From a virus (lineage: Duplodnaviria; Caudoviricetes), in the IMG/VR virus record IMGVR_UViG_3300025674_000049, positions 1-56,361 of that record: a stretch of 56,361 nt of DNA; one strand, 5' to 3'. Every line of letters begins with the position of its first letter. Position 1 is the first letter of the stretch. Under the pieces are notes generated by a model. It was not told where the DNA came from and searched no databases. It saw nothing but the letters and a program-made list of their open reading frames with translations. The position numbers were made by a program, and so were the translations under genes. Positions 1,028 through 2,517 of the stretch are shown here, piece by piece.

Positions 1028-1248
1028 TTGAGGTTGGGACGATTGGGACGTTTTCTACGGGTTATTTCCATTCCGTATGTTGCGGCTTGATCGATGTAAT
1101 ACCCCTCACGAACGGGGTTCCAGCCCCGCATGGCGTCAGCTGCCTTATGGCAGTCGGACACGATGTAGCGGAGGGAATAGGAGTCCAGCGTCTTGGCATG
1201 GCACTCCCACCTATCGAAGTGCTCGGATGTGGCGTGCTGCTGGATCAT
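1024..1248 (-). CDS. Small hypothetical early protein
   Basis: 74-aa ORF, ATGA overlaps on both sides. Confidence 0.7.
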   Translation of the reverse strand: MIQQHATSEHFDRWECHAKTLDSYSLRYIVSDCHKAADAMRGWNPVREGYYIDQAATYGMEITRRKRPNRPNLK

Positions 1249-1463
1249 TGGCCTGCCTCAATCAAGGCAAACAGTTCCTGTTTGCAGTCGGCGACGGTGG
1301 AGCCGACCACGGTGTGGAGACCGTACATGCCGTAGTAGGCGCCTTCGGCCTCGGTGATCAGAGCGATGGCCTGGGGGCGGACGCCCTCCGGGCGGGGAAC
1401 ATCTGTGCGCCAGATGAACTCCAGGTATCCGTCCGCATCTGCGCGGCGGGAATCAAATTGCAT
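1245..1463 (-). CDS. Small hypothetical early protein
   Basis: 72-aa ORF, GAGG SD-like upstream; first gene downstream of the structured RNA. Confidence 0.65.
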   Translation of the reverse strand: MQFDSRRADADGYLEFIWRTDVPRPEGVRPQAIALITEAEGAYYGMYGLHTVVGSTVADCKQELFALIEAGQ

Positions 1464-1513
1464 GTGCTAAAACCTCAGCTAGGGGATGGGTGCCCGGTGA
1501 AATGCCGGGCAAT

Positions 1514-2073
1514 AGCAGCTAGGGGGACTTGAACCCCCATACAGAAAGCCCGCCTCCACCAGGAGACGGGCAGACTGCGCCTTGCCGCCGGAGCGGTAGC
1601 CGCTAAATTCTTGCCTGACTGCCAGTCAGGGCTTTTAAGTTGCAGAGCCGGACGACAATCCGGGTTGCGTTATTCACAGGAAACCAACGGTTTACACCAA
1701 GGGCAGCGTGTTCAAGAGCTAGGTCGTTTGAGGACCGCACACTCAGAGAACCGGGATCATTGGATGAATCACCCGTGCTGCCTTGTCAGGCCGCAATCTC
1801 CTTCCCACTCACTCCCAGGTCGGTCAGGGCCACCGTGCTGATCCCTCAGCACCTGCTACACGCAACGTGGCTTGTCCCTCTGGTGGACAGAACTTGGGCG
1901 CTTTCCCGTAACGGTCAAGTGACCGCGTCCCTTGATTACACGAGCTCCGCAGAGCCACGCTTGGGGACCATCGTCCGGCAGAACCGCAGGCATCGCCGCC
2001 CTTGGATCTTTATCCGCGCTTACGTTCCGTTGCTGGCATCGCCAGCCGCAAGCTTGTTTTATGGGGCAGCTAC
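1514..2073 (-). ncRNA. Putative ~560-nt structured ncRNA with a tRNA-like 3' module
   Basis: T-arm GGGGG-TTCAAGT-CCCCC (1538-1522) then TAGCTGC (1521-1515), which pairs with GTAGCTG (2073-2067); about 10 local hairpins and two long-range helices inside; directly downstream of promoters. Confidence 0.6.
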
Positions 2074-2125
2074 TATCGGCCGCGGTTGCTTAATTCATAG
2101 ATGAGTGCCTCCTTTAGGTGAGTTA

Positions 2126-2154
2126 AGTGTTGCATGGATTGACTGGATTGTCAA
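2126..2154 (-). promoter_or_regulatory. Early sigma70-type promoter P3
   Basis: TTGACA-17 nt-AACACT with TGC just before the -10. Confidence 0.6.
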
Positions 2155-2221
2155 CCAGTTGGCCGGGAGTGTTAGGTGGGACGTCTAAGCGTCGCATGAC
2201 CTGAACCCCTCGGTTGAATCA

Positions 2222-2250
2222 ATGATGGCACAGGGTAGGGGATCTGTCAA
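2222..2250 (-). promoter_or_regulatory. Early sigma70-type promoter P2
   Basis: TTGACA-17 nt-CATCAT with TGTGC before the -10. Confidence 0.6.
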
Positions 2251-2252
2251 GC

Positions 2253-2449
2253 ACTCAACTATGAATTAGTTGAGTCTCGTGAGACTCACTAGCACGCTGG
2301 GGGACCTTTCGGATTAGAAAGGAACCGCGCGCGCGCGGGTGTGCCTAACCCAGTATTGCACAGCACGGGCGAAAGCGCAAGCCCATTGGCTGAGTCTCAT
2401 GAGACTCATGTGAGGGTCACGAGTCTCAGGTGAGTCTCACACTGAGACA
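2253..2449. repeat. Cluster of TGAGTCTC/GAGACTCA palindromic repeats
   Basis: TGAGTCTC-GT-GAGACTCA (2271-2288), TGAGTCTC-AT-GAGACTCA (2391-2408), further half-sites 2421-2449, ACTCAACTA/TAGTTGAGT inverted repeat (2253-2275). Confidence 0.8.
2352..2380 (-). promoter_or_regulatory. Early sigma70-type promoter P1
   Basis: TTGCGC-17 nt-AATACT with TGTGC before the -10. Confidence 0.5.
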
Positions 2450-2517
2450 AACCCGAAGGGGGGTACACCTGTGCATATCACTACCAGGCCCTATAAAAAT
2501 GTATATATATGTCGTCC

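Follow-up and report, generated by a model that had tools for sequence, protein, structure and literature searches.

A candidate two-module early RNA locus in an uncultured tailed phage: a large structured RNA joined to a tRNA-like element that may act as a processing cassette

The IMG/VR virus record IMGVR_UViG_3300025674_000049 (Duplodnaviria; Caudoviricetes; 56,361 bp, estimated completeness 81%), the whole of which is called the window here, carries on its minus strand, between a sigma-factor gene (3390-2518) and a run of small open reading frames (ORFs) that begins at 1463, approximately 1 kb without a convincing ORF. This locus is best explained as an early-region cassette of two RNA modules, carried by an uncultured tailed phage, in which the body of a large structured non-coding RNA (ncRNA) of about 450 nt (~2062-1606) is followed by a tRNA-like element of 93 nt (TLS; 1605-1513). 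Comparison with related phage contigs establishes that there are two modules, that each has a conserved secondary structure and can occur without the other, and that both keep a fixed place behind the phage sigma gene. We propose, with a probability only slightly above one half (about 0.55), that the TLS is a processing cassette, at which the large RNA acquires its 3' end and the downstream mRNA a protected 5' end. An initial annotation, made from this one sequence, had placed here, on the minus strand and just after a promoter, a structured ncRNA with a tRNA-like acceptor/T-arm unit of the shape recognised by RNase P and RNase Z. Our analysis supports both the RNA region, which is non-coding and lies behind sigma-70-like promoters, and the tRNA-like unit, which is genuine, although its architecture differs from the one suggested.

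Relatives of the locus were collected by a protein-anchored search and by exact-motif scans of viral and metagenome contigs. The close ones are L013 (99% identity), L002/L004, L009, L010 and L011 (92-94%) and L005/L007 (88%), and divergent forms that share blocks only were found in L014, L015, L016, L017, L021 and L023/L024. Three further candidates (L018, L019 and L020) were dropped as chance motif matches within coding DNA. A covariance model of the TLS (R1), built from the window, L002, L005 and L003, describes a four-way junction at 1605-1513 and finds the element at 75-78 bits in L014, L016 and L022, which were outside the model-building set. In an alignment of six sequences 99.5% of 192 cells are standard pairs, and 11 of the 32 pairs have changed on both sides: five of nine in the acceptor stem, two of four in the short hairpin, three of ten in the long hairpin and one of five in the T-stem. 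Slid alignments used as controls were 44-51% paired, and none of 500 shuffles reached the observed pairing. The strands were aligned with the covariance model, as MAFFT misaligned the 5' strand of the TLS of L014 and L016. An eight-row version gave 98.4% paired cells and 15/32 compensatory pairs; the six-sequence alignment is preferred because the L023/L024 row of the larger one is misaligned by an insertion in the T-stem. The cloverleaf-like fold is also the minimum free energy (MFE) structure in three divergent TLS variants, with z-scores of -6.0 (window), -7.2 and -7.05.

The element begins with the 5' strand of a 9-bp acceptor stem, UAGCGGCUA (1605-1597), which pairs with UAGCUGCUA (1521-1513), a 3' strand that, from the sequence and the model alignment, does not encode CCA. 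Immediately after the 5' strand, in the position of the D-arm, stands a tetraloop hairpin of 4-6 bp, CCGC UCCG GCGG in the window (1596-1585; all cells paired), and after it an invariant CAAGGC. The anticodon arm is replaced by a 10-bp hairpin with a 4-nt loop (1571-1548), flanked by an invariant GCAG (1578-1575) and an invariant CUGU (1544-1541). Its loop varies among relatives in length (4-6 nt) and sequence (UGGU, UUGUUG, UCCCC, CCCC), and because there is no anticodon loop the TLS should be unable to decode. An AU separates this long arm from the T-arm, GGGGG-UUCAAGU-CCCCC (1538-1522), which the initial annotation had read correctly and which is followed by TAGCTGC. The T-stem occurs as GGCGG/CCGCC in L016 and L022, where the pair has been kept by a change on both sides, and the linkers CAAGGCGCAG and CUUUCUGUAU, together with the T-loop, are invariant in every aligned variant. 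An acceptor stem (1605-1597/1521-1513) stacked on a 5-bp T-stem with a T-loop of the form UUCRANY is thus present. The element is tRNA-shaped but is neither a tRNA nor a transfer-messenger RNA (tmRNA). One or two nucleotides after it comes another hairpin (1511-1491 in the window), present in seven of seven TLS-bearing variants with differing stems and folding energies of -10.7 to -14.0 kcal/mol. In L023 (~2170-2225, plus strand), and also in L024, an insertion of ~52 nt splits the 5' strand of the T-stem (GGG / insertion / GG-UUCAAAU-CCCCC), and the local acceptor strands of these two are still complementary.

The point at which our results depart from the single-sequence description is the partner of the acceptor 3' strand. 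The initial annotation had paired GTAGCTG (2073-2067) with TAGCTGC (1521-1515) to close one RNA of ~560 nt with its two ends, in the manner of tmRNA. The pairing is possible in the window, and the MFE fold of 1491-2081 (minus strand) extends it to 11 bp by joining the distal strand GAUAGUAGCUG (2077-2067) to 1521-1511, but it is not conserved. When all upstream 7-mers able to pair fully with the seven nucleotides after the T-arm were listed in the 11 TLS-bearing loci, a local 7/7 partner was found in ten of them, 82-87 nt upstream (145 nt in L023, which bears the insertion), and the distal partner, 552 nt upstream, was found in two (the window and the 99%-identical L013). A 9-nt deletion removes the T-arm-proximal part of the distal strand in L002, L009, L010 and L011; the strand is replaced in L005 and absent in L014, L016 and L023; and in L003 the distal pairing has two uncompensated A-C mismatches while the local stem is still perfect. 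The two local strands change in concert, from UAGCGGCUA/UAGCUGCUA in the window to UUGCGACCA/UGGUCGCCA in L003 and UACGACAUA/UAUGUCGUA in L014 and L016. The acceptor stem is therefore local and covarying and the tmRNA-like layout does not hold; as judged by these comparisons, the locus is a large RNA plus a separate small tRNA-shaped element, and not one giant RNA closed like a tRNA.

The large RNA is delimited by its homology across relatives and by its fold, and homologous sequences occur in the window, the L002 type, L005, L014, L015, L016, L017, L021 and L023. Its transcript may begin further upstream, near 2215 or 2119. The minus strand of 1491-2081 folds with -257.4 kcal/mol (z -3.49; none of 100 shuffles as good); the values for the plus strand are z -1.62 and 7/100 shuffles as good, and for the body of the large RNA alone z -2.37 and 0/100. 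A second model (R2), built from L014, L016, L017 and L021, describes a core junction (1888-1801) made of the helices UCCA/UGGG, CCAG/CUGG and GCCAC/GUGGC around the invariant AGGGACAA and CCUGACCGAC. It finds the window (51.7 bits) and also L005, L015 and L023, at 46-55 bits, so that the core is present in eight of the ten sources searched, with no match in L003 and L022. Of the cells in the R2 alignment 94.6% are paired, against 33-50% in slid controls, and 8 of 18 pairs are compensatory: for instance, CCAG/CUGG becomes CCGG/CCGG in L021, and GCCAC/GUGGC becomes GCCGC/GCGGC in L023. Within the core, a GGGA-tetraloop hairpin (1852-1835) is formed in all eight homologues by stems of 5-7 bp that differ in sequence.

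The sequence of the large RNA is a mosaic between subtypes, yet long blocks such as CCAGAGGGACAAGCCAC and GUGGCCCUGACCGACCUGGGAG are invariant. The sigma proteins of the subtypes are 41-49% identical, whereas RNA blocks of 17-20 nt do not vary at all. The 5' domain exists in at least two forms, one in L016 and L021 and the other in L014 and L017; since L021 has its 5' form in common with L016 and its 3' form in common with L017, the large RNA itself is mosaic. For the 3' domain we propose a closing helix between the strand after the core and the strand before GAAUAA, which can form from differing sequences in 8/8 homologues (-18.6 to -23.0 kcal/mol); the structure that RNAalifold gives for four sequences differs in places from the manually drawn helices. 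The TLS, at 1605, directly follows the last conserved hairpin of the large RNA and an A/U-rich linker. This hairpin and linker, CAAG-N-AUUU (1640-1606 in the window), stand ahead of the TLS, or of the terminator where there is no TLS, in all types (L022 and L015 among them) and may be a leader seen by RNase P or RNase E. The sequence GAAUAAC...AACCCGGAUU has a loose likeness to the CR-V region of RNase P RNA; this is not a test, and the Rfam RNase P models had no match at E<=10 in 1200-2500.

Many of the individual helices that had been read from the window survive the comparison. All nine of the listed hairpins that were tested by script pair in the window, and those at 1571-1548 and 1511-1491 were seen in the local fold, but not all are conserved across relatives. 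Five (1955-1944, 1926-1911, 1852-1835, 1795-1776 and 1775-1752) are 100% paired in an alignment of four sequences, three of them with compensatory changes. The hairpin at 1889-1873 is broken in L015 and clashes with the covarying core helices, and that at 1604-1592 occupies the strand that forms the 5' side of the acceptor stem; neither is conserved. The 12-bp long-range helix (2005-1994/1708-1697) is complementary in the window and 87.5% paired in the four sequences, with two compensatory pairs that both come from one sequence. The 9-bp helix (1979-1971/1655-1647) that was thought to cross it as a pseudoknot or switch is also complementary in the window, but its central pair is kept in one of the four aligned sequences and no compensatory change was found. 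Covariation across homologues, which had been named as the check to make, thus favours the local acceptor stem and the core helices and does not favour the long-range closure or the 9-bp helix. The earlier observation is accurate as a description of one sequence, and the case illustrates that a convincing acceptor closure in a single sequence can be a chance alternative pairing.

The two modules are found without each other. In L015, L017 and L021 the core is present without a TLS, and the RNA ends in a CCCCC...GGGGG hairpin followed by UUGUUU or UUGCUU. In the L003-type contigs and in L022, the TLS stands at the same genomic site without the core, and the sequences that precede it (L003, 4460-4848, plus strand; L022, 13184-13719, minus strand) are unrelated to the large RNA of the window and to each other. 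The L022 segment is rich in hairpins with GNRA loops; neither segment has an Rfam match or a clear excess of folding energy (z -0.46 for L003 and -1.63 for L022). In the relatives that lack the TLS the large RNA stops at an intrinsic-terminator hairpin, so that what all types share is a need for a defined 3' end of this RNA. The interchangeability of the TLS with a terminator, together with the hairpin that always follows it, is what makes a processing cassette the best fit.

RNase P and RNase Z recognise their substrates by an acceptor stem stacked on a T-arm, and the end of the large RNA is probably cut by host tRNA-processing enzymes. In the pathway that we envisage, host RNA polymerase would start at one or both of two TTGACA promoters (2250-2222 and 2154-2126) and the transcript would contain, in this order, the ~450-nt ncRNA, the 93-nt TLS, the hairpin at 1511-1491 and the small early ORFs. 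RNase P would cut on the 5' side of the TLS, at about 1606/1605 (or at 1604/1603 if a 7-bp stem is measured), and so give the ncRNA its 3' end. A second cut, by RNase Z or some other 3' nuclease, would fall behind the acceptor stem, at about 1512, and would leave a protective hairpin at the 5' end of the downstream mRNA. Promoter activity, both cleavages, protection by the hairpin and whatever function the large RNA may have are what we infer from this arrangement; for the large RNA, we would guess at a structural or scaffold RNA that stands alone, of the kind represented by GOLLD and ROOL. There are precedents for the proposed processing: RNase P and RNase Z are reported to process a tRNA-like structure at the 3' end of the long non-coding RNAs (lncRNAs) MALAT1 and MEN-beta (PMC4919922), and RNase P to cleave a bacterial tRNA-like ncRNA, YrlA of M. 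smegmatis (PMC4201824). A bolder interpretation, to which we give distinctly less credence than to the processing role itself, is that the locus represents a new class of large ornate phage RNAs that mature via a portable, non-decoding tRNA-like cassette through cuts by RNase P and RNase Z, as a phage counterpart of MALAT1-mascRNA. Because the cassette is common to at least three unrelated upstream RNAs, the RNA site next to the phage sigma factor could then be a hotspot for exchangeable RNA effectors.

Several observations weigh against a processing cassette. The thermodynamics of the window sequence favour the long-range closure by ~6 kcal/mol (-257.4 against -182.3 plus -69.4 kcal/mol for the two modules). 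As all homologues belong to one syntenic phage group, with ~9 distinct sequences, the covariation rests on few independent events. A consensus scan finds that the long hairpin of the TLS followed by UUUCUGUAU looks like a terminator. The acceptor stem of the TLS has 9 bp and adjoins the next hairpin with no unpaired nucleotide between them, and CCA is not encoded, which would make the TLS an atypical substrate for RNase P and RNase Z. The cleavages are predicted, and the assembled metatranscriptomic contigs described below do not reveal where RNAs end or which strand they come from. The closing helix of the 3' domain of the large RNA remains a proposal because in 6/8 homologues another stretch of sequence pairs better, by 0.4-3.1 kcal/mol.

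Among the other explanations, the one that comes closest to our proposal regards the TLS as the active product, a stable tRNA mimic that acts in trans, either by decoying host defence nucleases or enzymes directed at tRNA, or as the partner of a tRNA-binding protein, as for YrlA and mascRNA, with the upstream RNA a separate entity or a carrier. The invariance of the linkers CAAGGCGCAG and CUUUCUGUAU and of the T-loop exceeds what a bare cleavage signal needs, the TLS is found behind three unrelated upstream sequences, and bacterial and phage Y RNAs are described with modified tRNA-like domains, one of them cut by RNase P and CCA-added (PMC4201824). However, the loop in the anticodon position is no anticodon loop and varies in length and sequence, no Ro60/TROVE gene was found in the record and no Rfam YrlA or tRNA match at the locus, and three relatives do without the element, so we regard a mimic as an unlikely, if arguable, alternative. 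We are more doubtful still about a cis-acting leader of the early operon that would control read-through or mRNA stability by antitermination or in the manner of a riboswitch, with no stand-alone ncRNA. In every contig the region does have the promoters on one side and the first small ORFs on the other, hairpins that resemble terminators are found within the TLS and, where relatives lack it, just ahead of the ORFs, and one metatranscriptome contig runs from 2200 into the ORF, to 1351. Yet with 450-650 nt and more than ten helices the region far exceeds known cis leaders, it matches no riboswitch or leader family in Rfam, and a strong terminator separates the RNA from the ORFs in the TLS-less relatives.

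The remaining explanations have little to recommend them. That the region is one ~560-nt RNA, with 2077-2067 and 1521-1511 forming the acceptor stem as in tmRNA and the whole excised by RNase P and RNase Z, is favoured by the folding energy of the window given above, since the closure is part of the MFE fold. The deletion, replacement or absence of the distal strand in most relatives, the uncompensated mismatches of L003 set against 5/9 covarying pairs in the local stem, the lack of a tmRNA call by ARAGORN and the lack of an Rfam tmRNA match at E<=10 make it very improbable. We give hardly any weight to the idea that the T-arm and the 3' strand are an attP core copied from the 3' end of a host tRNA or tmRNA. 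Phage attP sites often overlap tRNA 3' ends, but here the element has the complete shape of a tRNA and a covarying 5' strand of its own, and neither a tyrosine nor a serine recombinase was found in the 56-kb record (PF00589 and PF00239, no matches). The TLS and core motifs had no match in 185,579 bacterial and archaeal species, a scan in which the bare T-arm with the 3' strand was not included. The absence of an integrase and the completeness of the element are what make this origin unlikely. Just as slight is the prospect that the region is protein-coding, on the plus strand (ORF 1640-2104, 154 aa) or in a sense-strand ORF. The 154-aa frame is open, but the longest open stretch, 152 aa in the window, measures 91 aa in L005 and 101 in L015, with shifts in frame and position; the indels are not multiples of three and are located in hairpins that keep pairing; and the plus-strand frame is antisense to all neighbouring genes.

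Weighed against systems already described, the proposed processing cassette and its large RNA have likenesses to several and identity with none. GOLLD and ROOL are the nearest in size, phage origin and link to tRNA-like sequences, as far as they are treated in bioRxiv 10.1101/2024.12.08.627333, and the locus shares with them a large (>450 nt), multi-helix, phage-encoded ncRNA that adjoins a tRNA-like element, here a unit fused at its 3' end. This is a resemblance in kind and not membership: no Rfam model of either matched even at E<=10, and the linked element is not a decoding tRNA. In MALAT1-mascRNA and MEN-beta, according to PMC4919922, a long ncRNA likewise lies directly before a tRNA-shaped element that has a T-arm and an acceptor stem and lacks a proper anticodon loop, and RNase P makes the 3' end of the lncRNA while RNase Z frees the small RNA, steps that in the phage are predicted. 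Those RNAs are eukaryotic and nuclear, with no homology to the phage element, and the Rfam mascRNA-menRNA model had no match on the TLS, its sole match being a chance one of 20.7 bits elsewhere in L016. YrlA is also an ncRNA with a tRNA-like domain, in some cases phage-encoded and in one case cut by RNase P and CCA-added, as PMC4201824 reports; it differs in being ~100 nt long, in adjoining Ro60 and in carrying a Ro-binding stem, and there was no Rfam match to it at the locus and no match to TROVE (PF05731) in the record, which is 81% complete.

With tmRNA the TLS shares a T-arm and acceptor stem without an anticodon and, in the variant of the window, a G-U at the third pair if 7 bp are counted; among six aligned TLS sequences this G-U occurs in three (window, L002 and L005 types), and the L003, L014 and L016 types have GC or AU. 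The ends of tmRNA, however, pair around a tag ORF and pseudoknots, whereas the stem of the TLS is local, and no tag frame was found by ARAGORN, the one run in which it was sought. Like a tRNA, the TLS has a four-way junction, a 5-bp T-stem, a 7-nt T-loop (UUCAAGU) and a long acceptor stem. It departs from tRNA in that its stack is 9/5 (14 bp) and not 12 bp, nucleotides 8-9 are missing, a tetraloop hairpin replaces the D-loop and there is no 7-nt anticodon loop; the non-canonical tRNAs described in PMC5389517 include 8/4 and 9/3 types. ARAGORN made no tRNA or tmRNA call in the window and, in ten related loci, no tmRNA call and one marginal tRNA call (L022, tRNA-Ser(act), with a mismatched acceptor in another register).

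The locus appears to be an undescribed RNA family. As had been recommended, Rfam and ARAGORN were run, and Rfam at gathering thresholds matched nothing in the window and seven related loci. Scans by E-value (window 1200-2500, L022, L023, L014, L016 and L024) returned weak matches only, including chance microRNA, small nucleolar RNA and mascRNA matches outside the element, and at E<=10 the one match near the element in the window was tRNA-Sec on 1578-1515, with 18.8 bits the best score of the tRNA clan, where the gathering score is 47. Nor did blastn of 1400-2400 against 50,697 phage records give a match. The exact scan of the 185,579 species, with one genome each, is of a kind that detects close relatives only. 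In the literature consulted we found no description of this RNA, and none of a phage ncRNA processed by the tRNA machinery; the supplements of a catalogue of short IMG/VR RNAs (PMC10690425), with 8,495 candidates of 29-151 nt, may list a fragment of it.

The genomic setting is that of a tailed phage, with tail, tape-measure, head-protease and endolysin proteins encoded elsewhere in the record. Pfam identifies in the replication and early region a primase-polymerase, a family A DNA polymerase, a PD-(D/E)XK nuclease, a dNMP kinase and the sigma-70-family protein (290 aa, 3390-2518; Sigma70_r2 2.9e-21, Sigma70_r4 1.8e-7). The DNA polymerase has no close cultured relative (best match <=33% identical), and the suggestion that this is a cyanophage is not supported. 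Every sufficiently long contig has the gene order PD-(D/E)XK, orf134, dNMP kinase, sigma, RNA, small ORFs, and the sigma gene lies upstream of the RNA in seven of the nine related loci searched, the other two being too short on that side. The first small ORF downstream (1463-1245, 72 aa, with GAGG before it) has homologues in six related loci and matched no family in a Pfam search.

Two promoter-like sites precede the RNA. The upstream one (2250-2222), with TTGACA, a 17-nt spacer, CATCAT and a TG before the -10, has 10/12 matches in a consensus scan for sigma-70 promoters, its -35 is kept in relatives, and it would be expected to act as a promoter. The second (2154-2126), found by motif search, is of the extended -10 type (TTGACA-N14-TGC-AACACT); its TTGACA and ATGCAA are kept in all aligned relatives, and it too is a putative promoter. 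Between the sigma gene and these sites, at 2338-2325, a consensus scan finds a terminator-like hairpin, CCGCGCGCGCGCGG followed by UUCCUUUCUA, which suggests that the RNA is a transcription unit separate from the sigma gene. Also upstream, at 2285-2274 and 2405-2394, are the only two perfect GTCTC-NN-GAGAC palindromes of the window. The element is kept in relatives and could be an operator, but the count is not above chance, as two or more copies occurred in 40 of 100 shuffles. Downstream of the second site, a strong Shine-Dalgarno sequence, AAAGGAGG (2115-2108), lies 9 nt ahead of a two-codon mini-ORF, ATG AAT TAA (2098-2090), and the form ATG-NNT-TAA-G recurs in L002, L005, L003 and L023 with a varying middle codon. 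It is reminiscent of the bar minigenes of lambda.

Sequences of the locus are present in RNA libraries. Six metatranscriptomic runs contain 35-59% of sampled words of 1200-2600, and assembled contigs of four runs from four studies cover parts of 1351-2378: X15 (1763-2378), X16 (1766-2206), X17 (1374-1528, 1642-1792, 1880-2059 and 2062-2196) and X18 (1351-2200, an L002-like variant with the deletion). Such contigs indicate presence in RNA libraries, which may contain DNA, and not strand, ends or level; likewise, the contig depths of X16 (30.6 against 2-3.5) cannot rank expression. The contig ends at 2206, 2200 and 2196 fall just downstream of the promoter-like site at 2250-2222. At 1763/1766, within the conserved loop CAUCCAAU of the hairpin 1775-1752, three contigs of two studies come to an end, which hints weakly at either an RNA end or a strain break, and runs X15 and X16 have no contig on 1458-1762.

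To our knowledge, few classes of large (>400 nt) structured RNA are known from bacteria and phages (OLE, raiA, and GOLLD and ROOL, which still lack an assigned function). The locus adds a candidate class with clear comparative support, and it differs from these four in having, as a fixed component, a tRNA-shaped element fused to the RNA, for which a terminator can stand in. If the proposed processing by RNase P and RNase Z is true, host tRNA maturation would be the means by which phages set the ends of both an ncRNA and an mRNA, a mechanism known for eukaryotic lncRNAs.

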